A DNA stretch of 64,000 nucleotides from Elusimicrobiota bacterium (lineage in GTDB: Bacteria; Elusimicrobiota; Elusimicrobia; UBA1565; UBA9628). The position numbers and the translations under genes are program-made. The stretch is taken from positions 1,748-65,747 of the forward strand of contig DAIDHS010000014.1 in the NCBI GenBank assembly GCA_027451985.1, written 5' to 3'. The notes below the pieces were generated by a model. The model did not search any database. It was given only the letters and a program-made list of their open reading frames with translations, and was not told where the DNA came from. Below, piece by piece: positions 5,500 through 24,333 of the stretch. The stretch's first letter is position 1, and each line of letters starts with the position of its first letter.

Positions 5500-7152
5500 C
5501 TACTTGACGTCCTTGAGGTCCGCCATGTACTTCTGCGCGATGGTGCCGACCGCCAAGCGATAGTTGATCTCGGCCTGGGCCAGCGCGAGCGCGACGCCGT
5601 TGAGGCTTTGCTGCGCCTGCAGGGCCAAGTCTTGAGACTGCAGCACGCGGAAGGAATCGCTCAGGCCCAGACGCAGCCGTGCTTGCTCCTGCTCGAACTG
5701 CAGCCAGGACAGCCGCGCCGCAGCCTGGGCCACTTGGTAGCGCAAAGACTCGGTCTCAACGCCGCGCACGGCCGAGCGCACATCGAAGCGTACGGTGTTC
5801 TCCGTCCCTTGCAGCGCAAGTTCAGCCTGCTCCCGCGCGGCCTTGGCGGCGCGGTACTTGTCGATGTAGATGCGGTCACCGATGGGAATACTGAAGGCCC
5901 CCCCCACCGACCAAGCGTGGTCGCGGCCGTGCAGGGCGCCGGTAATGGCGTCGTTGAGCGCGCCCGGATCGCCGCTTTGGTTGCTGCCGCCGCTGGCCAA
6001 GGTGCCGGTGAAGTCAAGCTGAGGCAGAAGCGCGTTCCTGGCTTGGGCCAGGAAGGCGTTCTGCTCCGCCAGCACGCTGCGGGCCTGAGCGACGTCGGGG
6101 CGGAGCTTGAGCGCCATGGCCACGGCCTGAGAAAGCGGCGGCAACGTCGGAGCGGCCGCGGGCGCGCCGGTGGCTGTACCGATGGTGTAGCGCTCGTTAT
6201 CGAGCAGTTCCTGCACCTGCGCGCCGTAACAAAGGAAAATCAGATTATCCGCGTCGTCCTCACGGGTGCGCACGGCCTCCAAATAGGAGGTGCGCAGGAT
6301 TTCCACCTGCTCCTCCGAGGTCAGCGCGTCGTGCGCGGAGAGCAGGTTCAACTTGTTGAGCTCCTGGTTCTGGCGCATGATTTTTTCCGCGATGCGCAGG
6401 GACTTGAGCGTCACGGCCTCATTGCTCTCGTCTTGCCGAAGCGTCCAATAGCCGCTCTCGACCGCGGCCACCGTTTGCTGCAAAATGCGTTTGGACGCGG
6501 CCAGAGCCGCGTCGCCGCCCTCCTGCGCGATTTTGGCCGCGGCGAAAGCGGCGCTGCGCCCGAAACCCCGCAAAAGCGGCTGGGTGACGTCCAAGATGAC
6601 GCTTGAGTTGAACAGCGGCTGCGTGGGGGCGATCGAGTTCTCCTGCGTGCGCTGATTCTGCGCCGAAATGGAGAGCAGCGTGCCGATGGTGGTGTTTTTG
6701 TCGATTTTGAAAGTGGTGGTCTGGGAGTTGCTGTAGCTTTCCGCCGGAATCACGCCCGGCGTGTAAACGACGTGCTGGCCGATGTGGCTCTGCGAATAAT
6801 CGGCGCTGAAAACCGGATCGAAGGCGGCGACGTTCGCCTTGGCCCCGTAGCGCGCGTTGGCCAGGGCCGCCTCCGAGGCCAGGAAGCTCAGGTTGCGCGC
6901 GACCGCGACCTGGACCAGCGTCTCAAGCGGCACGCGCACGATAGTTTCATCGACGGTAAAGCGCGTCACCACGTCCGCGGTCGAAACCACCATCGCCGCG
7001 GCCTCCGCGGACAAGGTCGAGACGCTCAAGGCCGCGGATGGCGGCGCAGGAACTTTGGCCGCCGACCTGGCTGCGCGGGCTTGTCCGGGCGCGGCGCAAA
7101 GCAGAAGAGCCGCCGCAGCAATCAGAGCCTGAAGCTTCCCCCTCATGCTCAA
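5500..7152 (-). CDS. TolC-family outer membrane efflux protein
   Basis: 550 aa with signal peptide. Two-repeat coiled-coil/beta architecture, Ala/Gln/Leu-rich helical repeats, and a C-terminus typical of OEP family. ATGA overlap with the upstream ABC gene. Confidence 0.75.
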   Translation of the reverse strand: MSMRGKLQALIAAAALLLCAAPGQARAARSAAKVPAPPSAALSVSTLSAEAAAMVVSTADVVTRFTVDETIVRVPLETLVQVAVARNLSFLASEAALANARYGAKANVAAFDPVFSADYSQSHIGQHVVYTPGVIPAESYSNSQTTTFKIDKNTTIGTLLSISAQNQRTQENSIAPTQPLFNSSVILDVTQPLLRGFGRSAAFAAAKIAQEGGDAALAASKRILQQTVAAVESGYWTLRQDESNEAVTLKSLRIAEKIMRQNQELNKLNLLSAHDALTSEEQVEILRTSYLEAVRTREDDADNLIFLCYGAQVQELLDNERYTIGTATGAPAAAPTLPPLSQAVAMALKLRPDVAQARSVLAEQNAFLAQARNALLPQLDFTGTLASGGSNQSGDPGALNDAITGALHGRDHAWSVGGAFSIPIGDRIYIDKYRAAKAAREQAELALQGTENTVRFDVRSAVRGVETESLRYQVAQAAARLSWLQFEQEQARLRLGLSDSFRVLQSQDLALQAQQSLNGVALALAQAEINYRLAVGTIAQKYMADLKDVK

Positions 7153-9902
7153 GCCATCTGCCTCGATATGAGATCTTTAAAAAGGCCGGGCGTGTCGGCC
7201 AACGCGTCGAAAGTCCCTTCCTGCGCGATGCGGCCCTTATCGAGGACGATGACTCGATCAGCGTTGCGAATCGTGCTCAAGCGGTGCGCGATGACCACGC
7301 GCGTGACGTGCAAGGCATCCAGGCTCTTGGTCACCACTTCCTGCGTGGTGTTGTCCAGCGCGCTGGTGGCCTCGTCGAAATAAATCTTCTTGGGGCGCCG
7401 AGCCAAGGCTCGGGCGATCAAGAGGCGCTGGCGCTGGCCGCCCGACAAGGTCGAGGCGCCTTCGCTGATCAAGGTGAACATGCCCATGGGCATGTCGCGG
7501 ATGTCCTGCGCCACGCCGGCCAGCTCCGCCGCGGCCCAGGCGTCCTCCACACTCAAGGGCAGGCTGCCCACGATGTTGCGGTAGATGTCCCCGGCTAAGA
7601 GCCGGCCGTTTTGCAGCACCACGCCGATTTGCCGGCGGACTGAGCCGGCGTCGACTTTGGAAAGGTCCTGCCCGTCGTAATAAATGGATCCGATTTCGGG
7701 CGTCTCAAATCCCAGCAGAAGCCGCAGGATGGTCGACTTGCCCGATCCGGAGGGCCCCACCAGCGCCACGAACTCTCCGGGCTCGACGCGGAAGGACACG
7801 TCGTCAAGGACCTTGGGGCCGTCCGGGCGGTAGCGGAAGCTGACGTGGTTGACTTCTAGGCGCCCGCTCAAGGCCTTCGAGGCGGGCTTGGCCGAGTCCG
7901 CCTCTGGCAGCGTCTCCATGATGGGCTTGGCGTTTTTCCAGATGGGGATGACGTTCAAAATCGAAAAGGCCGTGCCGCTCAGGGAGATGCCGGCGTTTAA
8001 GAAGACCGTGAAAGCCGCCATGAAGGCGACAAAATCGCCCACCGAGAGCTTCAGGGGCGTCCCGCCGGCGGCCGGATGCATCTTCATATGCACCAACCAA
8101 AAGATTGCCGCGCTGGTGAACACCGGAATCATTGCGTTGAAGACCTGAATGAGATTGTCGTAGGCGTTGGCGGCGAAGGTGAGCTTGGTCGACTCGGCGT
8201 AGGACTTGCTCCACACCGCGAAGCCCCGGCGCTCGGCCGCGGCCACGCGGAGCTTTGAGATGCCGCCCAAAAGCTGGAAGACCAGCCCGGAAATCTTGTT
8301 GTCGAGGGCGGTGAGCTTGTAGCGCAGGCGCAGGGACATCCACAGACAGGCGCTATAGACCGCGACCGCGGCGGCCAGCATGCCGCAGGCGTAGAGCGCC
8401 AGGCCGGAGTCGTAGTAGAAAAGCAGGAAGAGGTTCAAGGCCGCGTGCAGGCTGTTGAGTACCGTCGTCATGACACTGCCGCTTAAGATCTGCTGGATGG
8501 AATTGACCGCGTTGGCGCGCTCGGCCAGTTCTCCCACGCTGTAGTCGCGAAAAAAAGGCACTGGCAGGCGCAAGAGCCTGTCCCAAAGCGCGGCCTGAAC
8601 CTCACCGTTGTACCTGCCGTTAATGCGCATCATGGCCACGCTTTGCGTCAGGCCGAAGAAAGCCGTAGCCAGCGCCGCCGCAACCAGGGCCAGCGTGTAC
8701 TGCATTAGGGCGCCGTACTCGGTGTTGGGGATGACCGTGTCGAAGAGCTTGCCCGTGACCCACGGGGCGGCCAGCCCCAGGACGGCGCCTGCTCCGGCCA
8801 TGAGTGCCAGCATCAGGAGATCGCCGCGCACTTCCTTGGCCACGAAACCCGCCACGTCCCGAAAGCGCACGACGGAATCCGGGAAGGGGCGGTAGAAGAC
8901 ATAGCCGAACGGCGAAAGGGAGCGCGCGGCCGCGGCGTCCACCGGGCGCCGCGAACCGTCCTCAGGATTAAAAATCTCGTAGGAGCCGGGCTTGACCGGC
9001 AGCAGGGCCACGGGCGGCCCGCAGAAATCACCATCGGGAGACGGCGGAGCGCCTAGCGCGGGAGCCGCCTCATCCGCGGGTTTTTCCGGAGCGGGCCCGC
9101 CCAAAGAGGCCAGAATAGGCCCGCAGTCGCTCTTCCACCAAGCCCCGCGCAAGGCGATGCGGCGCGAGCGCACGCGTGAGGCTTGACAGACGGCATCCAA
9201 GTAAAATCGGGGCGCGGGGTAGTCCGCGCGCCCGCCGGGATGAGAAAATTCGACGCCCATGGCTTCGCCCACCGCCAGCATGGCGCCGAAGAAGTGGTCG
9301 TCTTCGGGCGCGGCCAAGGCCGCGCCGGCCTTGGGCTCGATGATGCGGGCGAGGCGATTTAAGGCTGCGCGGTAAGCGCGCTCATCCGAAGCCTTGCGCC
9401 GCTCCAGACGTTTGGCGTCCTCAGCTTCGCCTTTTTCGGCCAAGTCCGCCAGGCGTTCCATCAATCCGTCTTGCAGGCTTAAAACCTGATCCAGAGCGGC
9501 CTCCTCCTCCGCGACCTTCGCGTCAGCCGATCCTGTCGGAGAGAAAGCGTCCGCCATGATTTGAAGGTAGAGTCTAAAATCCGCCGCGGCGCCCGCCGTC
9601 CCGGCGAACTCGCGCGCGTCTTGGCGGCGCACGGAGGCGCCCTGCCGCCCGACCGCGAGCAGGCTAAAGCCGCGCCGCGGCGGGGCACCCGCAAAAATAC
9701 GCCCGGCCGGAGCGGTGAAAACGTGCCGCCGCGGCCCCACAGGAACGCCGTTTTGGGCGCGCACGGCAAAGACGTCGACCTGGCCCGATTCGACCTTGTA
9801 AATCCAGCGCGCGTCGTCCAAGATGAGCGGGTGGTTGCCGGACAAAGACATTGCGGCCTGGGCTTCGTAGCTCATCTTATTGGCCCCCGGCCAAGCGAGC
9901 AT
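7149..9902 (-). CDS. NHLM-type bacteriocin export ABC transporter (permease+ATPase) with N-terminal cNMP-binding-like domain
   Basis: 917 aa. N-terminal beta-roll domain (ILDDARWIYKVESGQVDVFAV), six-helix permease domain, Walker A GPSGSGKST, signature LSGGQRQR, Walker B IYFDEATSALD. Confidence 0.8.
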   Translation of the reverse strand: MLAWPGANKMSYEAQAAMSLSGNHPLILDDARWIYKVESGQVDVFAVRAQNGVPVGPRRHVFTAPAGRIFAGAPPRRGFSLLAVGRQGASVRRQDAREFAGTAGAAADFRLYLQIMADAFSPTGSADAKVAEEEAALDQVLSLQDGLMERLADLAEKGEAEDAKRLERRKASDERAYRAALNRLARIIEPKAGAALAAPEDDHFFGAMLAVGEAMGVEFSHPGGRADYPAPRFYLDAVCQASRVRSRRIALRGAWWKSDCGPILASLGGPAPEKPADEAAPALGAPPSPDGDFCGPPVALLPVKPGSYEIFNPEDGSRRPVDAAAARSLSPFGYVFYRPFPDSVVRFRDVAGFVAKEVRGDLLMLALMAGAGAVLGLAAPWVTGKLFDTVIPNTEYGALMQYTLALVAAALATAFFGLTQSVAMMRINGRYNGEVQAALWDRLLRLPVPFFRDYSVGELAERANAVNSIQQILSGSVMTTVLNSLHAALNLFLLFYYDSGLALYACGMLAAAVAVYSACLWMSLRLRYKLTALDNKISGLVFQLLGGISKLRVAAAERRGFAVWSKSYAESTKLTFAANAYDNLIQVFNAMIPVFTSAAIFWLVHMKMHPAAGGTPLKLSVGDFVAFMAAFTVFLNAGISLSGTAFSILNVIPIWKNAKPIMETLPEADSAKPASKALSGRLEVNHVSFRYRPDGPKVLDDVSFRVEPGEFVALVGPSGSGKSTILRLLLGFETPEIGSIYYDGQDLSKVDAGSVRRQIGVVLQNGRLLAGDIYRNIVGSLPLSVEDAWAAAELAGVAQDIRDMPMGMFTLISEGASTLSGGQRQRLLIARALARRPKKIYFDEATSALDNTTQEVVTKSLDALHVTRVVIAHRLSTIRNADRVIVLDKGRIAQEGTFDALADTPGLFKDLISRQMA

Positions 9903-12057
9903 ACGCTCCGCCTTGGACTTTCAACTCGTCGTGGGTGCCGCGCTCGACCGTGCGGCCTTCCTCGAGCACGATGATTTCGTCCGCATCGCGCACGGTGCTA
10001 AGTCGGTGCGCGATGATGATGCAGGTGCAGCCGCGGCGGCGCAGGTTCTCGTCGATAGTTTTCTCCGTCACTGTGTCTAAGGCGCTGGTGGCCTCGTCCA
10101 AGACCAGCACGCGCGGGTTCAAGACCAAGGCGCGCGCGATTTCCAGGCGCTGGCGCTGGCCGCCGCTCAAATTGGCGCCGCCCTCCTCCAAAATCGCGTC
10201 GTAGCCGCCGACGCGCGCCACGATGTCGTTGTGGATGCAGGCGTCCTTGGCCGCGGCGACCATCTGTTCCTCGGGCACGGTGTCGTCCCAGAGGGTCAAG
10301 TTGTCTCGCACCGTCCCGGCGAAGAGCGCGATGTCTTGATCCACCAAGGCCACGGAGTTGGCCAGGATCTCGCGCGGAATGCTCGCGCGCGGCGTCCCGT
10401 CGAAAAGAATTTCCCCGCTCCAGGGCGGGTAGAGGCCCGTGACGATTTTGGAGATGGTCGACTTGCCGCAGCCGCTGGGGCCCACCAGCGCCACGCGGCT
10501 TCCGGGCTTCAACGACAGGCTGAAGTCCTCGATAAGCGGTTCCGAGAGCCGAGAGTAGCCGAAGCTCACGCCGCGCAACTCGACCTGGCCGGAGAGCTTG
10601 GCCGCGGGCGCGGCGCCGGATTTCTGCGCCGCCTCGTCCGCCGCCACATCCGCGTCCACAGGATAGGCCATGACGTCGTCAAGGCGGTTCATGTCGCCCT
10701 CGAATTCCTGGAAGGTGCCCATGAGCGCCACGCAGCGGTTGACCGGCTCGATGAAGCTGGCCATGAGGCTTTGGAAAGCGACCAAGAGGCCCAGAGTCAT
10801 GTGCCCGCGCATCACGCTCAAGCCTCCGAAAGCCAGGACCGCGGCCGTGGCCAGGGCCTGCAAAAGCGGCGGAATCTGTAGAAAGGGCTGCGTGACTTCG
10901 TTCAACTGCATGGTGAAGCTCACCAGCTTGGCCTGGTAACCGGCCCAAGTGGAGAAGAAATCCGACTCTCCCCCGGTCGCCTTCAGGGTCTCGATTGCCT
11001 GGAGCCCTCCCATGGACACGCCCATGAGCTTGCCCTGCTCGCGCACAAGGCGGCGGTTGCCGTCCACGCGCTTTCGCTGGATGGCGCGCGCGGCCGCGTA
11101 GTTGGCGCCCAGGGCGCCGACGGCGACCAAGGTCAAGAGCGGATTGATGGCGAACATCAGGGCGGCGTAGAAGATCACCATGACCGCGTCGACCGCGGCG
11201 CCGGCCATGTCCGCGGCCATGATGTGGGCCAGGCGCTTGTTGATGGCCACGCGGTTGGCGATGTCGCCTCCGAAGCGCTGGGAGTAGAAGTCCACGGGCA
11301 GGCGCAACACGTGCCATAGGAACTTGCCCGAGCCCGAAACCGAGAGCTTGGTCTCCAGGCGGTTGAGATAGTGCTTCTGCAACCAGGTGAGCGCACCGCG
11401 CATGACGGCGGTGATGAGCATGCCTAGAAGAAGGGGCTTGATCCAGTCCGTCATCTGGAGCACGAGGTAGTCATCTACGAAAATGCGGATGAATGTCGGG
11501 ATGACCAAGCCCGGCACTACCAGGGCCAGGCCCGCGATGACGATGTAGGAAAGCGCCTTCTTAGAGGACTCCATGCGCTGGCGCAGGCCCGGCCACAAGG
11601 AGGGCTTCACGCCGCCTTTCTTGAACTCGGGCCCCGGCTTAAAGGCCAGCGTCACGCCTGTGAAACACTCGTCGAACTCCTCATCCGAAACCGTCCGCGG
11701 CCCGGCCGCCGGATCGGCGAGATAGACGACGCCTTTACCGAAGCCCTCGACCACCAGGAAATGGTTGAAATTCCAGAAGACGATGAGCGGCATATCCATT
11801 TGGCGAAGTTCGGCGGGCTCCTTGCGGTAGCCCGTGGCCTCTAATCCATAAGTCCGCGCCGCGCGCAGGATGTTGCGCGCGTTGCTGCCGTCGCGCGAAA
11901 CGCCGCAGGCCTTGCGCAGTTCCTCGAGCGGGACGTAGCGCCCGAAATAGCCCAACACCATGGCCAAGGACGCGGCGCCGCACTCGACCGCCTCCATCTG
12001 CAGGACCGTCGGGACGCGGGCCCGGCGGAAGCTTTCGGATAATTTCAGGAGAGACAC
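9877..12057 (-). CDS. C39 peptidase-domain bacteriocin/lanthipeptide ABC transporter (LanT-like, double-glycine leader protease + exporter)
   Basis: 726 aa. N-terminal C39 domain with catalytic Cys in MEAVECGAASLAMVLGYFG, a permease domain, Walker A GPSGCGKST, LSGGQRQR, LVLDEATSALD. Confidence 0.85.
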   Translation of the reverse strand: MSLLKLSESFRRARVPTVLQMEAVECGAASLAMVLGYFGRYVPLEELRKACGVSRDGSNARNILRAARTYGLEATGYRKEPAELRQMDMPLIVFWNFNHFLVVEGFGKGVVYLADPAAGPRTVSDEEFDECFTGVTLAFKPGPEFKKGGVKPSLWPGLRQRMESSKKALSYIVIAGLALVVPGLVIPTFIRIFVDDYLVLQMTDWIKPLLLGMLITAVMRGALTWLQKHYLNRLETKLSVSGSGKFLWHVLRLPVDFYSQRFGGDIANRVAINKRLAHIMAADMAGAAVDAVMVIFYAALMFAINPLLTLVAVGALGANYAAARAIQRKRVDGNRRLVREQGKLMGVSMGGLQAIETLKATGGESDFFSTWAGYQAKLVSFTMQLNEVTQPFLQIPPLLQALATAAVLAFGGLSVMRGHMTLGLLVAFQSLMASFIEPVNRCVALMGTFQEFEGDMNRLDDVMAYPVDADVAADEAAQKSGAAPAAKLSGQVELRGVSFGYSRLSEPLIEDFSLSLKPGSRVALVGPSGCGKSTISKIVTGLYPPWSGEILFDGTPRASIPREILANSVALVDQDIALFAGTVRDNLTLWDDTVPEEQMVAAAKDACIHNDIVARVGGYDAILEEGGANLSGGQRQRLEIARALVLNPRVLVLDEATSALDTVTEKTIDENLRRRGCTCIIIAHRLSTVRDADEIIVLEEGRTVERGTHDELKVQGGAYARLAGGQ

Positions 12058-12064
12058 GGGGCGA

Positions 12065-13123
12065 TTAGAGCCCCAGCAGGGACTTCATCGCCGGGATGAC
12101 CAAGGTGATGGGGCGGCGCTTTTTGACGATGACGCGCACGTCGCACATCATGCCCGCCTTGATTTTCTGCTGCGGGCCGTCCGATGAGGACCAGCGGTAG
12201 CCGCTAAAATTATTGGGGTCCGCCTCCAGGGAGATACGCAGGATGTAGGGCGCGCCGCCGGAGGTGAGTTCCTGATCGAGGATATTGTTGCGGGTCAACT
12301 CGAAAATCATCTGCTCACGCGCGGGGAACTCGGAGACATAATAGACTTGGCCCTTCAAGTAGCCGTACTCTTCCTTCTTGATCGTGCGCGGCGAGACCTC
12401 CGCGGCCATGCCGGGCTTGGCCTGGTTGCCCACGCTCGGGATAAAGGCGATGGCGTTCAAAGACTGCTTCTCGCTGAAATAGGTCATGAGGAAAGCGCCT
12501 TTTTGGATGAGCGTGCCAGGCGAGGTCATGACTTCCACGATGCGCCCGCTCTTGGGCGCGATCACGTCCGTGGCTTCCTTCAACTCCATGCCGTTCAAGG
12601 CCAGCTGATTCTGGAGGGACTTGAGCTGGCTTTTGGCCTGGGCAAGGTTCTGCTTGGCGTTCTCCAGCACGTCTGGCGCGATGAGCCCCCCCTGCAGGGC
12701 CACCCGCATGGAGTCGACCTGGCGCTGCAGGCTACGCATGTGTTCCTGCGTGGCCGCGATCTTCTGGCTGATTTCCGCGTTCGAGCGGGCGCCGCGCTGC
12801 GCCATGTTGCTCTGATCCAGCGTCGCGACGACTTGTCCCTTTGTTACTGCGTCGCCTTCGCTGACGAAAATCTGCTTGACGATTCCGGTCCCGGGCGAGT
12901 AGATATTGTCCACGCCGCGGGGCGGCATGATGATGGCGGGACCGGAAATCGTCGTGGGAATGCTGCCGAAGACGGACCAGATGAGCGCTAAAGCGATGAG
13001 TCCGCAGAGCGTCCACAGGGCATACCAGCCCTTGGGTGTGGTCACCTGCATCAGGTAGTCTAGTTGCTCGGGAGAGGAGAGGCGTTCCAGAGAGGTTTTT
13101 CTAAAGATTTCCTGCTCGGCCAT
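12065..13123 (-). CDS. HlyD-family membrane fusion / NHLM bacteriocin secretion protein
   Basis: 352 aa. An N-terminal TM helix (WYALWTLCGLIALALIWSVF), a long coiled-coil (LQRQVDSMRVALQ...LKSLQNQLALN) and a C-terminal beta-barrel domain. Confidence 0.8.
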   Translation of the reverse strand: MAEQEIFRKTSLERLSSPEQLDYLMQVTTPKGWYALWTLCGLIALALIWSVFGSIPTTISGPAIIMPPRGVDNIYSPGTGIVKQIFVSEGDAVTKGQVVATLDQSNMAQRGARSNAEISQKIAATQEHMRSLQRQVDSMRVALQGGLIAPDVLENAKQNLAQAKSQLKSLQNQLALNGMELKEATDVIAPKSGRIVEVMTSPGTLIQKGAFLMTYFSEKQSLNAIAFIPSVGNQAKPGMAAEVSPRTIKKEEYGYLKGQVYYVSEFPAREQMIFELTRNNILDQELTSGGAPYILRISLEADPNNFSGYRWSSSDGPQQKIKAGMMCDVRVIVKKRRPITLVIPAMKSLLGL

Positions 13124-13155
13124 GAATGGAAAATTTTAACACAAAAGCGGGCGGC

Positions 13156-16100
13156 TCAAGCGAAGATTTCGACCTCGGGGAGTCCCTTTTGCAAAAAACG
13201 CGCGGCCGCGTAGCCGACGCCCGATTGACCCTGAAAAAATCCAGGGGTGGGCAGGCCCGCATCGAAGCCCAGGCGCAGGGCGCCTCGCTCGGTGCGGGAC
13301 GCCACGAGCGCGATGTCTCGCCGCGCCCACCGCGCCAAATTATCGTCTTTAAGAGCCTCTGCGGCGCGCTTTAAAAAAAGAGCGACGCCCACCTTGCCGC
13401 AGCACAAGTGATCGACGGGAGGCTCATCCGCGTGGCGCCAAGCCGCCGTGGCGGCTTGGCGCACGCTCAGCGAAAAATCGACACCCAGAAGCCGGCCCGT
13501 TTCCAAAAGCCCAAGACCCACGCCCGCCGCTCCGCCGCACCAGCTGGAGACAAAGCGCGGTTTGTCTCCCTGCCCGAAATCGCGCCAGTCCGGCCAGCCG
13601 CCCGCCTCGGCGTCGTAGCGCGCGGCGCAAAGCTCGGCCAAGTCGCGGGCCGCGGCGGCCCACGGGCCACCGCGCTTGGCCATGCGCGCGCAGACGTAGG
13701 CCGCGCCCGCCGCGCCGTGCGCTAAGCCCAATTCCGGACGCGCGTTTCGGCGCGACGCGGCCGCGCTGAAGAGCTCCCGGCTCGCCGCCAGAAATTCTTT
13801 CGAGAGCTCCTCGCGGCGACGCTCGATTTCGCCCGCGAGCGCGGCGGGAAGCCCCTGCGGCAGGACCTCCAGCGCCAAAAGAGCGCCCGGGATTCCCCCC
13901 AGCAGGTCCGCTCGGCGCGCGTCCTCCAGAGACAGGTATTTGGGCGAAAGCGCCGCCGCCAGATGGGCCGCGTCCAGGACTAGAGATTCATCTTTCAGGA
14001 TGCGGCCGATAGCCGATAAGCCGTAGGGCAAGGAGGCCGCGCCCGTGCCCACGCCCAGGCCCATGATGCGCACCATCCGCTCCATGCCGTATCGCTGCGC
14101 GTCGCGGGCGGCGAGCTTGGCCGTGGCCAGGGCCGTGCGGCGGGCGCGCTCGTGCCCCCCGACGGCGTGGGCCGCGGCCAGGAAAAGGGAAATGCCCATC
14201 GCCCCGTCGAAAAGCCGGCCGCCCACGGGACCGTACTGCCAGTTGCGCGAACGTTCGTCGTAGCACAGGGACAGCCACCAAGCCTCGTCGTTTTCCGCCA
14301 TCAGGGCGCCGTCTAAGATGCCGTCGGCCAGGCGTAAAATCACGCTCTTAAGCGTCTCCGGCGAGGCGTCGGCCTCTTCGGCGCCCTCCGGAGCGGACTT
14401 CCCCTGCGCCGCTTTGGGCATAAAAAAGCTCGCGCGCAGGAACTGCCTTTGCCGGGATAAATCAGGCTCGCCCAGCGCGGACAAGCGCCCGCGGACCAGG
14501 TCCAGCGGCGCTTCGTTCATCGTCAGAATCCGCCGCCCGCCGCAAGACGCGTACGCCCGGCCCGGCGCCGTTTTAAAAACCGGAACGTCCCGGTAAGACA
14601 ACGTCGCGATTTCCTCAACGGCGCACAAGCCGAGGCCCCGCCGCTCTTCCTCGTCTTCCACGCCGGAGAGCGCCCGCCACAAGGGCTCGAACACCAAGCC
14701 ATGGGCCGCGCCGTCCTTGAGCGCCGCGGGCTCCAGAGACTTTTGCAGCAGGTGGGCGTAGACCTTGGTGTTGCGCAGGATAAAGCGGGTCGGGATATCC
14801 CGGAGAGGCTCGAGCGCGGCGGAAGCGGCTTCGCGGATCTCGGGATGCAGAGCCTGGCCATAGGCCTCGGTAAAGCCCGTTTCGATGTCGTCTAGATAAT
14901 CGGCCGCGGCGACGGGCCGGCCGTTTAAAAGCGGTTTGTTCGCGCTGGGCGGGGCGGCCGTCCGGACCTTGGCCACGCGCATGCGGTCGCGGTTGGGAAA
15001 TTGCCACGCCAGGACTTCTCCCGATTCGCCCGCGCTTCCCCCCGCCAATCCGCTCGACTCCAAAACCCGGTCGCCGCCCAAAAACTCGTAGCGGGGCAGA
15101 AGCGCCGTGCGCACGACCGATTCAAAGAAGAAGCGGTGCAGCGCCAAGTTGGACGCGCCAAAGGCGTCCGCTCCCATACGCGGCCTCGGGCAGCACACGG
15201 TCTCCAAATCGATGGGATAAGGCCCCGCGGCGGTCGCGACGATGTTCTCGTGATGCAGGTCCGAGGCGCCCAGCAGGTACATGTGGAAGAGCAGCTCTCC
15301 CGCCGCCTTGAAATATCTCCGGACTTCGACCTCGGTTTTAAAATCGGCGCGGCGGGCAAATTCGCAGTAGCCGTAGCCGTCGCGGCCCAGTACGCGCAGG
15401 CGACCTAAGCTTGAGGCAAAACCCGCGGCGCCGATGCCGTCCAAGTAGGCGCCAAACCACGCCTCGGCCGCCAATGATTTGGGCTTATAAAGGAAGCGTG
15501 CGCCGCCTTCCGATTCCAGCACGGCCACGGTCTTTCCGCCCTCGTGCGGATCCGAGACGCCGAATTGGACGTGCCGCGCGCGCGCGGGCGCGCCTCCCAC
15601 GACGAAGAGCCGGACGACTTCCGGCCAATCCTCGGTCAAACGGGAAACGAACAGGGTCATGTTCCTGCGCCAATTTTCCAGCAAAACGGCCATGACGCGC
15701 AGAAGGACCGGGTATTCCCCGAAGAAAGCCCGGAAGCCGTCTTCCTGAAATTTAAGGATGAAGGCGCGGAAAGCGGCGTCTGACTCCGCGTCGAAACCGG
15801 AGAGGCTTTCGCCCTCCAGGTTTTTAAAAACGGCGAACTCAGCCGCGAGGCAATAGGCCGAAACGCCGCACAAGTTGTTGAGTAGATCGTGCCGTAAATC
15901 GTCCCAGGCCTCCGCCGCCAGCGGAGCCTCGGGAACAGCCGCCGCGCAAGAGCTCTGAAGACGCGCAAGCTCGTGATGCGTCAGGGCCGACCAGACGGGG
16001 CCAAACGCCACGTCCGCGTCGGGCAAAACGGCTCCGCTTTGCGAATTTCTCAGCACGCCGGAGAAAAACTCGACGATGTCCACAGCTGCGGGGACCCAGC

Positions 16101-16299
16101 GTTCGTCATCAGGAGGCGATCCGCCGAAGGCTTTGCGCTGTTCCAAAAGTCCGGGAGTGAGCGGATCGATGGCCACGCGCCATGCCTCCACGTCCAGGCC
16201 CCGCGCGCCGTCGGCCGAAAGCCGCTCGGACAAAAGGCGCGCTTTGGGTAGAAGCGCCTGAACGAAGGCTTCCGGCGGGGCGAAGGACGCGGCGCTCAC
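13156..16299 (-). CDS. class II lanthipeptide synthetase LanM (ProcM-like, CCG zinc motif)
   Basis: The DUF4135 dehydratase domain carries the conserved DLHHENIV. The C-terminal LanC-like cyclase has GLAHGAAG, SWCGGAAG (WCxG) and HLCCGKVG (CCG instead of CHG). The start is set at the GTG overlapping the upstream TGA stop (GTGA at 16296-16299); the first 207 codons of ORF 13156..16917 overlap the JmjC gene in another frame and hold no Met. Confidence 0.85.
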   Translation of the reverse strand: MSAASFAPPEAFVQALLPKARLLSERLSADGARGLDVEAWRVAIDPLTPGLLEQRKAFGGSPPDDERWVPAAVDIVEFFSGVLRNSQSGAVLPDADVAFGPVWSALTHHELARLQSSCAAAVPEAPLAAEAWDDLRHDLLNNLCGVSAYCLAAEFAVFKNLEGESLSGFDAESDAAFRAFILKFQEDGFRAFFGEYPVLLRVMAVLLENWRRNMTLFVSRLTEDWPEVVRLFVVGGAPARARHVQFGVSDPHEGGKTVAVLESEGGARFLYKPKSLAAEAWFGAYLDGIGAAGFASSLGRLRVLGRDGYGYCEFARRADFKTEVEVRRYFKAAGELLFHMYLLGASDLHHENIVATAAGPYPIDLETVCCPRPRMGADAFGASNLALHRFFFESVVRTALLPRYEFLGGDRVLESSGLAGGSAGESGEVLAWQFPNRDRMRVAKVRTAAPPSANKPLLNGRPVAAADYLDDIETGFTEAYGQALHPEIREAASAALEPLRDIPTRFILRNTKVYAHLLQKSLEPAALKDGAAHGLVFEPLWRALSGVEDEEERRGLGLCAVEEIATLSYRDVPVFKTAPGRAYASCGGRRILTMNEAPLDLVRGRLSALGEPDLSRQRQFLRASFFMPKAAQGKSAPEGAEEADASPETLKSVILRLADGILDGALMAENDEAWWLSLCYDERSRNWQYGPVGGRLFDGAMGISLFLAAAHAVGGHERARRTALATAKLAARDAQRYGMERMVRIMGLGVGTGAASLPYGLSAIGRILKDESLVLDAAHLAAALSPKYLSLEDARRADLLGGIPGALLALEVLPQGLPAALAGEIERRREELSKEFLAASRELFSAAASRRNARPELGLAHGAAGAAYVCARMAKRGGPWAAAARDLAELCAARYDAEAGGWPDWRDFGQGDKPRFVSSWCGGAAGVGLGLLETGRLLGVDFSLSVRQAATAAWRHADEPPVDHLCCGKVGVALFLKRAAEALKDDNLARWARRDIALVASRTERGALRLGFDAGLPTPGFFQGQSGVGYAAARFLQKGLPEVEIFA

Positions 16300-17027
16300 G
16301 CCTCCTCCCGGCGCAGACGCCACGCCTGCGGGTCGTCCGCGATCGCATCCAGAAATGCGGAGAGGTTCGTGTGGTTGACGAAGTTGAAGCTCAAAGTCAC
16401 GGAAGGCTCGAGGCTGCGCGCGGAGTGCACCTGCCCGGCGGGCACGAGCAGCACGTCGCCGGGCTCCAGATCCGCTCTCTTGACCGCGGACCGCGCCTTT
16501 TCTCCGGCCGGGCCGTGCAGGCTTACGCACTTGCGGCCGATGATTTGCGCGAGCCAGGCGTGCGTGGAAAACAAATCCGTGTGCGGCAAAGTCTCGGTCC
16601 CTGCGGGGCCGATGAAAAGCCAGCCGAACTTCTTCAAATACCACTCCTTGTCCGCGGGGGAGCGGAAATCGAGCAGCGTGCGGCAGAACTCCGGAAAAGC
16701 GAAGTCCTCCAGCAGCTCGGGGTGCTTCGCGAAAGGAGAATATTGCAGGGTATACCAGCGCGGCTCGCTCTCGGGTCCGGCGCCGCCTAAAATCCAATCG
16801 ATGAAGCCGGCCAGAAGCACTTTCTTGCCGCGCTTGGTTCCGCCGATGTTGTCGCCCACGACCAACTCGTCTTGCCCCAGCGCCTCGCGCAAAAAATCCC
16901 AGGTCCAGCGCCCGCACGCCCGCCAGTGCTTGGCGTAGCCTTTAAAGAGCGCCGGCGCGCCCGGAGAAGCGAGCAGCGCGCGCTCGGCCTCCTCTGCGGA
17001 AATGCCCTCTTTGAAAACGCGGATCAT
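16296..17027 (-). CDS. JmjC/cupin-type Fe(II)/2-oxoglutarate-dependent oxygenase (putative peptide hydroxylase)
   Basis: 243 aa from the internal Met MIRVFKEG. An HxD...H triad is visible (LPHTDLFSTHAW ... AGQVHSA) in a beta-roll context. ATGA overlap with the upstream gene; its stop overlaps the LanM GTG. Confidence 0.6.
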   Translation of the reverse strand: MIRVFKEGISAEEAERALLASPGAPALFKGYAKHWRACGRWTWDFLREALGQDELVVGDNIGGTKRGKKVLLAGFIDWILGGAGPESEPRWYTLQYSPFAKHPELLEDFAFPEFCRTLLDFRSPADKEWYLKKFGWLFIGPAGTETLPHTDLFSTHAWLAQIIGRKCVSLHGPAGEKARSAVKRADLEPGDVLLVPAGQVHSARSLEPSVTLSFNFVNHTNLSAFLDAIADDPQAWRLRREEA

Positions 17028-17926
17028 GACGGCGCGGCGGCGGAAAGGGCGGAGCGGCGGCGGATCTCCGCCCCGAAGCGATCCGTCAAGACGCCCGAGA
17101 GCCTCTCCAGCAGCCGGTCGCACAGATCTCGCGGAGTGTAGCCCGAAATGCGCGAGAGGCTGATGCCGATGAACCGGCAGTCCATATCCGAGCTTTTAAG
17201 CCACGCGGCGAAGCGATCCAGGCGCGCGAAGGCTTCCTCGTCCGTGGCCGTGCGGCCCTCGCCGCGCCCCTCCGAACGACCGAAGACCAGCAGGTGCCGT
17301 CCGTCGGGCGAGATCGTGGGGCTGACCGGAGCGCCGGGGGAAATGCGCAGAAGATGATACGGGTTGCTCTTAAAGCTTTCAAACTCGCCCGCGGTGACCT
17401 CAAGAGCGACCGGAGCGCGGTCCGGAGTCAGGTTGCAGGAGAAATAGTCCAGGCAGACGTCGAGCGCGACCGGGCCTTGCGGGCGGATGTCGGAAAGAGC
17501 CTTGACCCGAGCGAAGCGCGCCTGGGCGGCGTCCGGCTTGCCTTCCAATTCGGGCGGCAGCGGCCCTTTGGCCCAGACCATGGCGCGGCGCGCCGGATCA
17601 GTCGTGAAAACGCAGACCGGGCCGTCGTAGGGGATCGTGGCCTCGTGCTCGCGGTGCCACCACACCTCGCCGAAGAGGCCGTGAAGCATGGCCGGCCAGA
17701 TGAAGTTGGCGATGTTGAGCTCCTTCAAGACGAAGGCGCGTGTCTCCGCGAGGCCCGCTTCCGGCTTGAGCATCGGGCCCTGCAGCGTGGGCAAGTCCAT
17801 GTCCGAGTGCTCGTCGATGTGGACCAAGGAACTGCCCCGCGCGGGAAGGACGCCCCTGACGGCGGCCTCCTTCCAGAAGTAGAACGCCTCGTGGTGCTCC
17901 TCGAAAACGACGCAGGAGACGGGCAT
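17024..17926 (-). CDS. UPF0489-like (C5orf22-like) domain protein, function unknown
   Basis: 300 aa from MPVSCVVFEEHHEAFYFW. The motif block VFEEHHE...LVHIDEHSDMD resembles UPF0489 as I recall it, with low certainty. TGATG overlap with the upstream GNAT. Confidence 0.4.
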   Translation of the reverse strand: MPVSCVVFEEHHEAFYFWKEAAVRGVLPARGSSLVHIDEHSDMDLPTLQGPMLKPEAGLAETRAFVLKELNIANFIWPAMLHGLFGEVWWHREHEATIPYDGPVCVFTTDPARRAMVWAKGPLPPELEGKPDAAQARFARVKALSDIRPQGPVALDVCLDYFSCNLTPDRAPVALEVTAGEFESFKSNPYHLLRISPGAPVSPTISPDGRHLLVFGRSEGRGEGRTATDEEAFARLDRFAAWLKSSDMDCRFIGISLSRISGYTPRDLCDRLLERLSGVLTDRFGAEIRRRSALSAAAPS

Positions 17927-18858
17927 CAGCTCCGCGCGGGGGCGAGCAGGACTTCGAGCCCGCGCAAAGTCCAGGTCCTGTCCAGGCAGGGCACCAAGTG
18001 CTTGTTCAAGGAGCGCAGCCACTCGGGATATTCCAGCGGCACGTCGAACTCGGCGCAGCTGGGCGAACCTTTTTTCAAAAACATCTGGTAATGCGCGTTC
18101 ATGGCCGCGCGCAGGAGAAGCACGGCCGCGGCGCGGTGGCGCGAGGCGAAGTCCGGCTCGACCCAGAACTTGGTGTAGTAGAGCGTGTCCGGCTTCTCCG
18201 CGAAGCGGTGGGTCGCGAACCAGCCCTTGGCCTCGTCGCCCGCAAACAGCATCTGGCTCGTCTCCCAGTCGAGCTCACTTTGCCTAAAGCGCACGCCCAG
18301 GTGGGCCGGACCCCCGGCGCGCGAACCCCGCTCGATGGGGTCAAGCCCCTCGACGCGGGCTTTGGCCCAGGAAATCACGCGCCAATCGGCGGTCGAGGAT
18401 TCCCCCGCCCCCTTGGCCCAGCGCGGGATGTTCGCGATGCGGCTCTGTCCGAAGAAGATGCGCGTAAAAGGCGTCCCGTAGCCCGCCTTGATGATGGTCT
18501 TTTCCGCGGCTTCCAAGCCCGTGATGCGGCTGCCGTAATTCAAGGAAAGCCGCTCAAGATCAGGGGCGCGGGAAAGCTCTTCCCTCAAGCGGCGCAGCAA
18601 CGCGGCGCCGAGGCCTTGCCGGCGATATTCCGGCGCGACGTAGACGGAAAGCAGTTCGGCCCTATGCTCCGCGGCAATGAGACCGGCCAGAGCCAAGCCC
18701 TGCGGCTCGCCGCCTAAAGTCCGCGCGGCCGCGGCCAGCCAGGGAAATTCCTTCTTCGCGGCGCCTTCGGCGTAGGACGGGTAAGTGAGACCGGCCCAAG
18801 GGGCGAAGTCGGCTTCGGCGTTAAGGATGGAAATTTCGGAATCTAAAGCGGCGTTCAC
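17926..18858 (-). CDS. GNAT family N-acetyltransferase with C-terminal extension
   Basis: 310 aa. GNAT motif A is LSVYVAPEYRRQGLGAALLRRL. A C-terminal ~170 aa domain is of unknown function. Confidence 0.55.
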   Translation of the reverse strand: MNAALDSEISILNAEADFAPWAGLTYPSYAEGAAKKEFPWLAAAARTLGGEPQGLALAGLIAAEHRAELLSVYVAPEYRRQGLGAALLRRLREELSRAPDLERLSLNYGSRITGLEAAEKTIIKAGYGTPFTRIFFGQSRIANIPRWAKGAGESSTADWRVISWAKARVEGLDPIERGSRAGGPAHLGVRFRQSELDWETSQMLFAGDEAKGWFATHRFAEKPDTLYYTKFWVEPDFASRHRAAAVLLLRAAMNAHYQMFLKKGSPSCAEFDVPLEYPEWLRSLNKHLVPCLDRTWTLRGLEVLLAPARS

Positions 18859-18950
18859 GGGAGAAATCTCGGATTGGGGCTTTGCGCTCCGGAGCGCGGC
18901 CGAACTGCTCCGCGCCCCGGAGCGATGCCGTTTTAATTTTTCGGCCGAAA

Positions 18951-19268
18951 CTACATGCTCATCATGACGCAGGCCGAGGAGCCGCCGCAGCTCGCGCCGC
19001 AGCGCCCGCCGCCCGCGACTTTCTCAAGCTCGCTGTCCGAGAGCTCGCCGCCCGCCTTAACCAGATCGGGCACCACGACCACCAAGTCCGCGCCGTTGCG
19101 CGCCACGGCCTTGATGTTGAAGCCTTGCGGAAGCTCCTTGCCGGAGACTTCTTTGACCGCCGCGCTGGGGTTTTTGAGCGCCAGCTCGCGGAACTTCGCG
19201 TCCGTCGAAGCCTTGCGCGAGAACGCTTCCAAGGCTTTTTTTTGCTCGTCTTGGGTCCAGGGTTTCAT
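18951..19268 (-). CDS. lanthipeptide precursor A1 with NHLP (nitrile hydratase leader peptide)-type leader
   Basis: 105 aa. The leader is MKPWTQDEQKKALEAF...DAKFRELALKNP...LVVVVPDLVKAGGELSDSELEKVAGG. The predicted core is G-RCGASCGGSSACVMMSM, with 3 Cys and 4 Ser. Confidence 0.8.
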   Translation of the reverse strand: MKPWTQDEQKKALEAFSRKASTDAKFRELALKNPSAAVKEVSGKELPQGFNIKAVARNGADLVVVVPDLVKAGGELSDSELEKVAGGGRCGASCGGSSACVMMSM

Positions 19269-19331
19269 CGTTTTCTCCTTAAGAATAATTTAAACGGCCC
19301 GCCTTTCCTTTATATCGATTTGCAAATGCGC

Positions 19332-19694
19332 TTAAACGCAGGCTCCACCCACTCCCGGCACGTACGTAGGCCCCGGAGGCACCGTGGACGAAACCAGGCA
19401 GACCTGGCTGATACCGCAGCTTCCCGCGCAGCGTCCTCCCGCGACCTTCTCGAGTTCGCTGTCCGAGAGCTCGCCGCCCGCCTTGACCAGGTCGGGAACC
19501 ACAAGCACCATGTCCGCGCCGTCCCTCGCCACCGCCGCGACCTTAAAGCCCGCCGGCAGATCCTTGCCGGAGACTTCCTTGACCGCCGCGGCCGGATTCT
19601 TGAGCGCCAACTCGCGGAATTTCGCGTCCGTCGAGGCCTTGCGTGCGAACGCCTCCAAAGCCTTTTTCTTTTCGTCCTGCGTCCAAGGTTTCAT
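19332..19694 (-). CDS. lanthipeptide precursor A2 with NHLP-type leader
   Basis: 120 aa. The leader is almost identical to A1 and ends ...SDSELEKVAGG. The predicted core is RCAGSCGISQVCLVSSTVPPGPTYVPGVGGACV, with 4 Cys and 6 Ser/Thr. The ATG overlaps the upstream gene's stop (ATGA). Confidence 0.8.
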   Translation of the reverse strand: MKPWTQDEKKKALEAFARKASTDAKFRELALKNPAAAVKEVSGKDLPAGFKVAAVARDGADMVLVVPDLVKAGGELSDSELEKVAGGRCAGSCGISQVCLVSSTVPPGPTYVPGVGGACV

Positions 19695-20449
19695 GCGATT
19701 TTCTCCTTTCCCTCGAAAGCCGCGCGCGTCTCGCCGACGGCGGCAAGTTCCACGCGCAGATTAAAATTATCCGGAAGATGCCGCCCCATTATCCGGGCGG
19801 CGGCGCCGCGCGGATCGGACAAGAAGCGCCCCTTAAAGTCCGGCCGGGCCGCGGCGCGTTTCAAGACGGTTCGGCGTAGGCATTGGATTTCGAATTCGTT
19901 CGGAGGCGGCGCGGGCGGAAACACCTCGCCCTCGCCCAGCACGGTGATGCGCGCCGCCAAGGCCTGCCGCCAGCACTCGCGCGCGGCGGCGAGAACGTCC
20001 GCGAAATCCCGGACCGGCGCCAGCGGCGCGGCTTTCGCACCCGAATCGGCCACCAGGGCGCCGTAGCAGGCGAGCGCTTCCCGGAGCTTTTGAAGTTCAG
20101 CGCCACTAACGTCCGCGCCCAACGCACGCGCATCGAACGCCACGCATCGGGTGCGCGGCGCCGGAATGAAAACGGGGACGCAGGTCGCGCCGACGAACTC
20201 GGTCTCCATCAAATCAAAAAGAAATTCCCCGGCCCGGACGTCGAAAAGTTTGTGCCGCCGGATGAAGACGCCGCTTTCGGGATGGCGCCGCGCCAGAAAC
20301 AGGCTGAGGCGGCCCTCCAAGACAAGCCACGCGCGGCCCGGGGAGCCACACTGAACGTAGGGAACCCCGCCGGGGAGTTCTTGTCCGACGGCCTCGATGC
20401 GTTGCTCCAAGGTCCCGGGCTCCACTGTCATCTTAGAGGATGCTATCAT
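19691..20449 (-). CDS. cyclic-nucleotide-binding-like (beta-roll) domain protein, standalone
   Basis: 252 aa from MIASSKMTVEPG (SD-like aaaaagagaaat upstream). The N-terminal domain LVLEGRLSLFLARRHPESGVFIRRHKLFDVRAGEFLFDL resembles a cNMP-binding fold. The stop overlaps the A2 start. Confidence 0.45.
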   Translation of the reverse strand: MIASSKMTVEPGTLEQRIEAVGQELPGGVPYVQCGSPGRAWLVLEGRLSLFLARRHPESGVFIRRHKLFDVRAGEFLFDLMETEFVGATCVPVFIPAPRTRCVAFDARALGADVSGAELQKLREALACYGALVADSGAKAAPLAPVRDFADVLAAARECWRQALAARITVLGEGEVFPPAPPPNEFEIQCLRRTVLKRAAARPDFKGRFLSDPRGAAARIMGRHLPDNFNLRVELAAVGETRAAFEGKEKIA

Positions 20450-20468
20450 ATTTCTCTTTTTCGTCGTT

Positions 20469-21497
20469 TTAGCGGCCAAAAAAAGCACGAGCCGCAATCG
20501 CATTACAGATCAGATACGCGACGGGATAGAGCGCGCGGGAAGCGGAGCGCACGCGCGCCGCAGTCCGGGACGAGCGCGCTTGGGCCGCGCGATGAACCAC
20601 GACGATTTCCACTATGGACAACGCGGAAAAGACGAAGCAAATGAGGAAGAACGCGTCGATGTAGGTCAGATACGGTAGGTGCGGCAGGCTGCCCGAGATG
20701 ACGAACAAGAAGGCCACCATCGTCAGCGTGGCGCTCAAGGCCACGGAGAACTGAGCCGCCACGTCAGTCTCATTGATCCACAAGGCGCAGTAGGACACGA
20801 TGACCATGATAAAGAGCGGCAGGAACACCTTCCATATATAGTAGCCGTAGCGGCGCTTGATGAGCATGTTAAAGTCGATTTCTGGGATGCTGCCGCCCTT
20901 GCCGCCCAGCACCGACTCCGCGGGCACGGCCTTCATGCCGAGCATCTTCCACTGCGCCAGAAGCGCCCAAGGCTGGCTATTGATGCCGGTCTGCCCCGGG
21001 TCGGGGATGGGATTGACCACGTCCCGCTCATCGAGGAACGGCTGGATGACCACGGGCAGGACCTGCTCGTCGAAGGGAAAACGGTGGAAGCTCATCTGCA
21101 TGGTGAGGTCGTCCTCGAAGTCCTCCCAGAAAACCACCGTGCCGTCGGGCTTGCGCCGGACGTTGGTGCCCAGCTTGAAGAGCCCGTTGACGGCGTTGGC
21201 CATGATGACGTTGGGCGTCCAGATTTTAGCCGGATCGCAGAGCCGATCTTTGTCCTTGGGGCCGCGCGGAACGTACTTGAGTCGAGGATCCTTCCACTGC
21301 TCATAGAGGTATCCCCGGATGCGGAAGGTCTGCGCGACCTCGTCGACGCCCACCAAGTCGGTCACGTAGACGCCTACTTTGACAGGCACGCGCCCGCCGC
21401 TGGACGGCGGAGGAGGAGGAATTTGACGGGCCGAAGCCCGAAGCCCCGTGGACAGAAGAGGAATCAGGAGCGTAACGGCAATTGCGGTGCGCTTCAT
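20469..21497 (-). CDS. prokaryotic pentameric (Cys-loop family) ligand-gated ion channel homologue
   Basis: 342 aa. Signal peptide, ~200 aa beta-rich extracellular domain, then pre-M1/M1 RRYGYYIWKVFLPLFIMVIVSYCALWI (GLIC/ELIC-like R-x-Y..LP..F....S..A.W), M2 SVALSATLTMVAFLFVISGSLP, M3 and a short M4. Confidence 0.7.
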   Translation of the reverse strand: MKRTAIAVTLLIPLLSTGLRASARQIPPPPPSSGGRVPVKVGVYVTDLVGVDEVAQTFRIRGYLYEQWKDPRLKYVPRGPKDKDRLCDPAKIWTPNVIMANAVNGLFKLGTNVRRKPDGTVVFWEDFEDDLTMQMSFHRFPFDEQVLPVVIQPFLDERDVVNPIPDPGQTGINSQPWALLAQWKMLGMKAVPAESVLGGKGGSIPEIDFNMLIKRRYGYYIWKVFLPLFIMVIVSYCALWINETDVAAQFSVALSATLTMVAFLFVISGSLPHLPYLTYIDAFFLICFVFSALSIVEIVVVHRAAQARSSRTAARVRSASRALYPVAYLICNAIAARAFFGR

Positions 21498-23890: not shown

Positions 23891-24333
23891 CAAAGAACCT
23901 CCGTTCTCCCCTCGATAAAGCTGCGTCCGTCCTCGGATCGCCGCCACACCCGCAAGTCCCCTGCGCCTGCCGCCGTCATCGCGACGATCAAGTAGGCGTA
24001 GGCGGGCCAAGCGCGCTGCAAATCAAAAGGCGACGGCCACGCAGGGGCGTCGGGATGTGAGTGGTAAATGCCCACGATGCCGCGGGGTTGACCCGAAAAT
24101 TCCTTCTCGACCGCGGCCCAGGCCTGCGGGTCCATCTCGTAGCGATCGTTTTTTCTTTGCGGGTTGGCCATATTTTTGAGCGGCCGAGCGTCCAGGACGC
24201 GCACGTCCGATTCGGGATCGCCGAAGCCGGAGGAGATGTCGCCGATTAAAAGCCCGCAGCCTTCCTCGGGATAAGTTTCGCGCACGTGATCTTGAATGGC
24301 CTTCATGACCGCGTTCGGAATAAAGAGCGTCAC
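23890..24333 (-). CDS. JAMM/MPN+ metalloprotease (Mec+-like)
   Basis: JAMM motif EEGCGLL ... HSHPDAPAWPSPFD (E-x(n)-HxH-x7-S-x2-D). Start is either the GTG overlapping the cysM TGA (GTGA, 147 aa) or the ATG at 24306 (138 aa). Confidence 0.75.
   Translation of the reverse strand: MTLFIPNAVMKAIQDHVRETYPEEGCGLLIGDISSGFGDPESDVRVLDARPLKNMANPQRKNDRYEMDPQAWAAVEKEFSGQPRGIVGIYHSHPDAPAWPSPFDLQRAWPAYAYLIVAMTAAGAGDLRVWRRSEDGRSFIEGRTEVL

Follow-up and report, generated by a model that had tools for sequence, protein, structure and literature searches.

A lanthipeptide synthetase with a putative three-cysteine zinc site and two conserved precursors in an Elusimicrobiota lipolanthipeptide-like operon

Introduction

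Does a cyclase zinc site built from three cysteines mark an enzyme that processes a library of peptides, or can the same site belong to an enzyme that serves a few defined products? The question is raised by a stretch of 64,000 nucleotides, here called the window, from an Elusimicrobiota bacterium (GenBank assembly GCA_027451985.1, contig DAIDHS010000014.1, positions 1,748 to 65,747 of the forward strand). Positions 13156-16299 of its minus strand form a single open reading frame (ORF) for a class II lanthipeptide synthetase (LanM) of 1047 aa, whose LanC-like domain reads CCG in place of the canonical CHG. An earlier note on this DNA took the motif as the hallmark of ProcM-type promiscuous synthetases and saw it as a match to a multi-substrate context of nitrile hydratase leader peptide (NHLP) precursors. 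Very many LanMs carry CCG, which has been recognized since 2012, and the motif alone adds little. Based on the gene, its relatives and its neighbours, we propose, with a probability of about 0.8, that this LanM is intact, belongs to the CCG (ProcM-like) lineage and serves two conserved NHLP-led precursors in a phaeornamide-like operon.

Results

The LanM gene and its zinc-site motif

The gene and the codons of its cyclase site are the following.

13156..16299, minus strand: LanM, 1047 aa, with an N-terminal dehydratase domain (DUF4135) and a C-terminal LanC-like cyclase domain
13399..13404, minus strand: CCG codons TGC TGC (C966, C967), with C967 in place of the canonical His ligand
13534..13539, minus strand: codons TGC GGC, for C921, the first zinc Cys by alignment, and G922
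13717..13719, minus strand: codon of H861 (GLAHG), the acid of the active site conserved among LanC-type cyclases (role from PMC9934072)

LanM starts with a GTG at 16299, just 3' of a Shine-Dalgarno sequence GGAGGAGG, and this start shares bases with the upstream gene's stop codon, TGA. Residues 196-577 match Pfam DUF4135 (PF13575, 1.7e-88) and residues 692-1038 match LANC_like (PF05147, 4e-35), and the protein scores 557 bits against the NCBIfam model TIGR03897 'type 2 lanthipeptide synthetase LanM' (cutoff 304). In an alignment of 52 LanMs no variation is seen at the dehydratase residues D250, H252, K272, D347, N352, D364 and E366, and very little at H349; H861, W920, C921 and C966 of the cyclase are conserved. 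The counterparts of D250, H252, D347, H349, N352 and D364 in CylM are D252, H254, D347, H349, N352 and D364, dehydratase residues that had previously been mutated in that enzyme. An AlphaFold2 model computed from the 52-sequence alignment covers the full length with a mean predicted local distance difference test score (pLDDT) of 89.1 and a predicted template modelling score (pTM) of 0.90. Foldseek places the model next to LicM2 (6ST5, 2e-35) and CylM (5DZT, 5e-31), and its C-terminal domain next to LanCL1/2 and NisC.

Could the second cysteine be a sequencing or assembly error, or the trace of a decaying gene? The full-length frame of 1047 aa, the conserved catalytic residues and the confident model speak against decay. 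HLCCG is identical in the orthologues L001-L005, which come from five independent assemblies, and the change of a His codon to the Cys codon of TGC TGC requires two bases, which together exclude a sequencing error. Nothing was found in favour of either. We therefore rejected an origin by error or pseudogene formation, on the grounds of conservation and of the two-base codon difference, and its probability is negligible.

A phmmer search of LanM against the chains of the Protein Data Bank (PDB) returned LicM2 (6ST5) at 1.3e-52 and also matched CylM (5DZT). The motifs quoted in the earlier note, GLAHG, WCGG and HLCCGKVG, are all present in the translation, in the contexts LGLAHG (H861), SWCGG (C921, G922) and DHLCCGKVG (C966, C967). 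In the phmmer alignments SWC921GG lies over NSWC875KG of CylM and YWCHG of LicM2, and LC966C967G lies over LC911H912G of CylM and LCHG of LicM2. In the crystal structure of CylM the zinc is bound by Cys875, Cys911 and His912 (PMC4550811). C967 is aligned with the ligand His912, as it is with the His of CHG in LicM2, and therefore replaces the ligand His. The substitution of CCG for CHG is thus borne out, and the cysteines fall at the zinc-ligand positions and not outside them. Column 966 of the 52-LanM alignment is Cys throughout, and column 967 holds Cys in 35 sequences, His in 17 and nothing else, a restriction that points to a homologous position and not to a chance match. We interpret C921, C966 and C967 as the putative ligands of Zn2+ in a three-thiolate site. 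In the model H861, C921 and C966/C967 each immediately precede an inner helix (H863-874, H924-938 and H969-983), and this placing at the helix edges fits a toroid metal site, as expected.

It is conceivable that C967 is no metal ligand at all, that the zinc is held by two cysteines and water or by another residue, such as His964, and that CCG is neutral for reactivity. The His two positions before the motif (HxCCG) is found in 118 of 192 CCG LanMs and in none of 17 CHG LanMs (P0002-P0232, a sample biased to relatives of this LanM), which hints at a compensating residue, and no solved CCG-type LanM is among the PDB matches to the protein or its model. Yet 39% of the CCG enzymes do without that His, column 967 admits Cys or His alone, as a ligand position would, and LanMs of the ProcM clade are reported to have three Cys zinc ligands (PMC13060382). 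A non-ligand C967 appears very improbable to us, and we retain the three-thiolate site as the likely arrangement. As a separate observation, H964 (codon 13408-13410), the His at position -2 of CCG in the window LanM, may be a second-sphere residue.

What stands beside the first zinc Cys? In the window LanM it is Gly (G922, codon 13534-13536; WC-G-G), which corresponds in position to His277 of LanCL1, Tyr285 of NisC and Lys876 of CylM. ProcM and HalM2 have His at the equivalent position, and in LanCL1 His277 forms a hydrogen bond with the carbonyl of dehydrobutyrine (Dhb), its replacement by Ala lowering kcat/Km about tenfold (PMC9934072). Of 149 scorable sequences among the best 150 representatives of the database search given below, 114 have His directly behind the first zinc Cys, 20 have Asn and only 4 have Gly. 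These four are the closest relatives of this LanM, and the trait is confined to its own subclade; in a neighbour-joining tree the window LanM, L005, P0002-P0004 and P0088 make up one clade with a bootstrap of 100/100. A Gly at an enolate-stabilising position offers a natural test of the weight of this residue beside a three-thiolate zinc site.

Distribution of the CCG motif

How widespread is CCG? A HMMER scan of 1.84 billion representatives (50% identity) yielded 9143 relatives, the best 150 of which were examined, and CCG is present in 149 of the 149 that could be scored. In named genomes, taken at one genome per species, LanM loci were recruited with a profile of 10 closer LanM sequences, and 58 of 72 scorable loci carry CCG. 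The CCG loci span cyanobacteria, Acidobacteriota, Verrucomicrobiota, Planctomycetota, Alphaproteobacteria, Actinomycetota, Myxococcota, Bdellovibrionota and haloarchaea. In the neighbour-joining tree, which comprises 122 LanMs, one split parts all 95 CCG enzymes from all 23 CHG enzymes and the window LanM lies on the CCG side; the tree includes no named ProcM, and in the sequence comparisons Nostoc and Synechococcus CCG homologues took its place. In the literature CCG is what sets the LanMs of the ProcM clade apart (PMC8524650, PMC10027976 and PMC13060382). CCG is the inheritance of a very large clade and does not represent an adaptation of this locus to many substrates.

Other loci with a CCG LanM often carry one to three conserved precursors, as judged by a crude scan; a Nostoc family with MMADTGHxHMSCCTDCPxGNGQC provides an example. 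In L051 (8296-12835, Nostoc linckia NIES-25) and other Nostoc loci, L006-L023, we observed a CCG LanM next to two to three Nif11-type precursors, the cores of which are identical or nearly so MMADTGHSHMSCCTDCPKGNGQC, a further conserved CCG system of low diversity.

Two precursors with conserved cores

Two precursor genes lie upstream of LanM on the same strand.

18951..19268, minus strand: NHLP precursor A, 105 aa, core after VAGG GRCGASCGGSSACVMMSM, 'short' type; TIGR03793 48.2 bits
19332..19694, minus strand: NHLP precursor B, 120 aa, core after VAGG RCAGSCGISQVCLVSSTVPPGPTYVPGVGGACV, 'long' type; TIGR03793 47.3 bits

A six-frame scan with hidden Markov models (HMMs) found exactly two NHLP precursors in the 64-kb window. 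No further enzymes for peptides that ribosomes make and that are modified after translation (RiPPs) were found in the scan of the window, and a second LanM within it was considered and rejected after that scan. Both leaders are of the NHLP type and end in ELEKVAGG, and they are 87% identical to each other, while the cores are 24% identical. Each core contains three to four Cys, no Lys and one Arg, at position 1 in B and position 2 in A. Throughout the related precursors the cores start with RC or (G/A)RC after the Gly-Gly, some of the short ones a few residues later, as exemplified by the cores of L085 (RCGGTCGASAACLAMTM and RCPGSCAASGACAVSSTVSLFLPGVGGACV) and L024 (RCAGSCGGSCVMMSS and RCAGSCLASCAISSTVGLGLPGVGGLACA). 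Every complete orthologous operon has two to three precursor genes, with both a short and a long core among them; L004, on a cut contig, has the short core only. Identity to the window ranges from 45 to 100% for the cores, which is comparable to, or above, that of the leaders, while the LanMs are 29-73% identical. That the cores are far more conserved than LanM itself indicates purifying selection on defined products. As read from the genes, this pattern is the opposite of that of the prochlorosins, with their conserved leaders and hypervariable cores.

The spacing CxxS recurs in core B (C2/S5, C6/S9 and C12/S15), which suggests small rings in which Cys is N-terminal to dehydroalanine (Dha). 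Enzymes of the ProcM clade form rings in both directions, including Cys N-terminal to Dha (PMC13060382).

Two observations on the core pair can be added. An N-terminal R-C-x-x-S-C and repeated CxxS are shared by the short and long cores of the window, L008, L020, L024, L043, L085 and L087. The pair occurs in Elusimicrobiota, Vicinamibacteria, Opitutales and Caulobacteraceae metagenome-assembled genomes (MAGs) and in metagenome contigs, and is possibly a two-component product.

Would such an enzyme mature a library? The alternative that the three-Cys site marks a promiscuous, ProcM-style generalist acting on diverse NHLP substrates has the presence of CCG to recommend it, a motif that PMC8524650 and PMC10027976 tie to promiscuity, and the difference between the two cores, which must both be accepted by one enzyme. 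Prochlorosin precursors are also often scattered over the genome, as stated in PMC8524650, and the view here is of 64 kb. Against it, two precursors are found in these 64 kb and the same short and long pair recurs in complete orthologous operons, the cores are under the selection just described, and CCG is a feature of every scorable nearest representative. CCG loci with few substrates are common, NpuM has a single substrate (PMC13060382), and MalM, a homologue of ProcM, does not modify the precursors of ProcM. We consider a generalist unlikely. Since CCG is universal among the scorable nearest representatives and is common at loci with few substrates, it serves as a clade marker and not as evidence of promiscuity here. 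The description as a ProcM-type site stands as far as motif, lineage, literature and NHLP leaders are concerned, whereas the motif says nothing about promiscuity at this locus, where the genes in view form a dedicated two-peptide system; the proposed match between CCG and a multi-substrate context is not supported by the two precursors, their conserved cores and the lineage-wide occurrence of the motif. The reading that we prefer, an intact LanM of the CCG lineage serving two conserved precursors, receives further support from the genes around it.

The operon and its neighbours

The remaining genes of the operon, in the order of transcription, are as follows.

19691..20503, minus strand: 270-aa protein, conserved in L001/L003
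17926..18858, minus strand: GNAT-superfamily acyltransferase of ~300-310 aa, candidate side-chain fatty-acyl transferase, counterpart of PhaN/KspN/NpuN
17024..17926, minus strand: peptide arginase (Arg to ornithine), 300 aa, ATG at 17926, counterpart of PhaR/KspR/OspR
16296..17027, minus strand: Cupin_8/JmjC-like Fe(II)/2-oxoglutarate hydroxylase homologue, 243 aa, ATG at 17027, counterpart of PhaI
12065..13123, minus strand: HlyD-type secretion adaptor of the NHLP bacteriocin system (TIGR03794, 280 bits, cutoff 156)
9877..12057, minus strand: ATP-binding cassette (ABC) subunit of the NHLP exporter with an N-terminal C39 peptidase (TIGR03796, 1100 bits, cutoff 853; Peptidase_C39, 1.1e-36)
7149..9902, minus strand: second ABC permease/ATPase subunit of the NHLP exporter (TIGR03797, 883 bits, cutoff 709)
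5500..7152, minus strand: TolC-like outer-membrane efflux protein (Pfam OEP, 2.4e-31), the last export gene, in the same place in L001/L003

The region 5500-20503 of the minus strand thus holds a selidamide-like set: two NHLP precursors, GNAT, arginase, hydroxylase, LanM, HlyD, two ABC subunits and OEP. In selidamide biosynthetic gene clusters a LanM, a PF12640 peptide arginase, a GNAT and an NHLP or Nif11 precursor are co-localized, and in the phaeornamide pathway the arginase turns Arg2 of the core (Arg1 in ksp) into ornithine, the PF08007 enzyme PhaI hydroxylates it and the GNAT adds a fatty acyl group; the pha LanM closes the Cys4-Thr7 ring and does not depend on these steps to do so (PMC8784127). 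By its predicted gene products, the operon 5500-20503 matches the phaeornamide (selidamide) lipolanthipeptide pathway. As Lys is absent from both cores and each has a single Arg, at position 1 or 2, formation of ornithine, its hydroxylation and its acylation are predicted at that residue, together with several thioether rings.

The arginase matches Pfam PF12640 (3.8e-15) and the PDB entry 8BRP 'Peptide arginase' (1.9e-30). The hydroxylase homologue matches Pfam Cupin_8 (5.2e-14, 53.2 bits) and JmjC_2 PF08007 (1.3e-5, 25.2 bits, cutoff 22), and in the PDB it matches JMJD5/JMJD6 at about 1e-12. The GNAT matches Acetyltransf_1 (9.6e-12), and its position is kept in L001, L003, L004, L085 and L087. 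Stop and start codons overlap between GNAT and arginase (TGATG, 17924-17928), arginase and cupin (ATGA, 17024-17027) and cupin and LanM (GTGA, 16296-16299), an arrangement that points to the four maturase genes being translationally coupled. The operon is kept gene for gene in L001/L002/L005 (an Elusimicrobiota MAG, LanM 73% identical), L003 and L004, and is found rearranged in L085-L088, in Vicinamibacteria (L008, L043), in Opitutales (L020, L026) and in a Caulobacteraceae MAG (L024).

For the 270-aa protein at the head of the operon, leader mimicry and regulation are conceivable roles. Its residues 209-251 weakly resemble an NHLP leader without a core (TIGR03793, E=0.001), and a standalone version of 75 aa is present in L085 (6655-6882); BLASTP comparisons of the protein with the N-terminus of the second ABC subunit and with precursor B gave no significant similarity.

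Some features of the surroundings may be recorded in passing. At 20469-21497 a homologue of prokaryotic pentameric ligand-gated ion channels (Neur_chan ligand-binding and membrane domains) adjoins the cluster and has the same place in L001 and L003. A single 520-aa ORF at 22448-24010 fuses ThiS-like, ThiF/MoeB-like and rhodanese domains. The GC fraction is low in two patches, 1-2000 (0.51) and 54001-56000 (0.49), the rest of the window being at about 0.58-0.68.

Discussion

How might the operon make its products? Judging from the family and its conserved catalytic residues, the N-terminal domain of LanM would phosphorylate Ser and Thr of the core and eliminate the phosphate to give Dha and Dhb. 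A Zn2+ ion held by C921, C966 and C967 in the alpha/alpha-toroid would then bind a core Cys and activate it for Michael addition, and H861 would protonate the resulting enolate. All-thiolate ligands should raise the nucleophilicity of the zinc-bound substrate thiolate. Zinc-thiolate chemistry is the basis for this expectation, and a more reactive zinc-bound thiolate with three Cys ligands has reportedly been proposed in work on ProcM. We speculate that the three-Cys zinc site, together with electrophilic Dha derived from Ser, compensates for the side chain lost at G922. The N-terminal Arg would become ornithine, which would probably be hydroxylated and then fatty-acylated, and the C39 ABC exporter would cut the leader at the Gly-Gly, so that the products would be thioether-bridged peptides.

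A number of points weigh against the reading of an intact CCG-lineage LanM that serves two lipidated products. The split between CCG and CHG enzymes in the tree has a weak bootstrap (25/100), and ProcM, PhaM and KspM were compared by their published descriptions, CylM and LicM2 being the aligned references. Coordination by C967 is read from the alignment, the model carrying no metal. G922 provides no side chain that could stabilise the enolate, which makes the efficiency of the cyclase uncertain. Both precursors score marginally under the TIGR03793 cutoff of 50.9, and further substrates may be encoded elsewhere in the source genome, beyond the 64 kb. The arginase scores 170 bits against NCBIfam NF052474, under the cutoff of 350, and a homologue search with the GNAT returned four close relatives and no named reference of the KspN/PhaN/NpuN clade. 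The ring topology drawn from CxxS and the acylated (hydroxy)ornithine on the cores are both predictions.

What are the implications of a three-Cys LanM with so few substrates? The locus, with two strongly conserved cores, is a natural counter-example to the equation of CCG with a promiscuous library enzyme. It is also a candidate two-peptide variant of the selidamides in poorly studied phyla, and its LanM, arginase, hydroxylase and GNAT are of practical interest for genetically encoded lipopeptides. More tentatively, and at odds that we set somewhat short of even, the window and its relatives might represent an undescribed family of two-peptide (short and long) ornithine-lipidated lanthipeptides with R-C-x-x-S-C and CxxS rings, in which an innermost WC-G-G sub-lineage relies on the three-Cys zinc thiolate and Dha. 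The family so proposed spans Elusimicrobiota, Acidobacteriota (Vicinamibacteria), Verrucomicrobiota (Opitutales), Caulobacteraceae and several unassigned metagenome contigs.

Comparison with known systems

The fold and the aligned active sites of the window LanM are shared with CylM (5DZT) and LicM2 (6ST5). Their zinc site, however, is the canonical Cys-Cys-His, and the first Cys is followed by Lys in CylM and His in LicM2, in contrast to Gly in the window LanM. ProcM of Prochlorococcus MIT9313 and SyncM resemble the window LanM in their class II architecture, the CCG motif and the long Gly-Gly leaders of their substrates. They differ in that ProcM acts on ~30 and SyncM on ~79 hypervariable substrates of the Nif11 type, whereas the window LanM has two of the NHLP type with conserved cores; the first zinc Cys is followed by His in ProcM and by Gly in the window LanM, and the latter is at most 28% identical to cyanobacterial CCG LanMs. 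Also similar to the window LanM is NpuM of the nostolysamide pathway in Nostoc punctiforme, which PMC13060382 presents as a ProcM-clade three-Cys LanM with a small set of defined substrates, working with a GNAT that acylates residue 1 of the core. That system has a Nif11 leader, modifies Lys and not Arg/ornithine, has a single precursor and is without an arginase or hydroxylase.

The nearest counterparts in gene content are pha of Pseudophaeobacter arcticus and ksp (kamptornamide), which share with the window an NHLP precursor, a LanM, a PF12640 arginase, a GNAT and a C39 exporter. A PF08007-type hydroxylase is common to the window and pha but not to ksp. The target Arg lies at core position 1 or 2 in pha and ksp, as it does in the window cores, and the phaeornamide ring joins Cys(i) to Thr(i+3) with Cys N-terminal, the same spacing as CxxS in the window. 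The source lineage is different, the nearest named relative being an Elusimicrobiota MAG. Whereas pha and ksp have one precursor and one ring each, the system of the window, known from its genes alone, has two precursors with three to four Cys in each.

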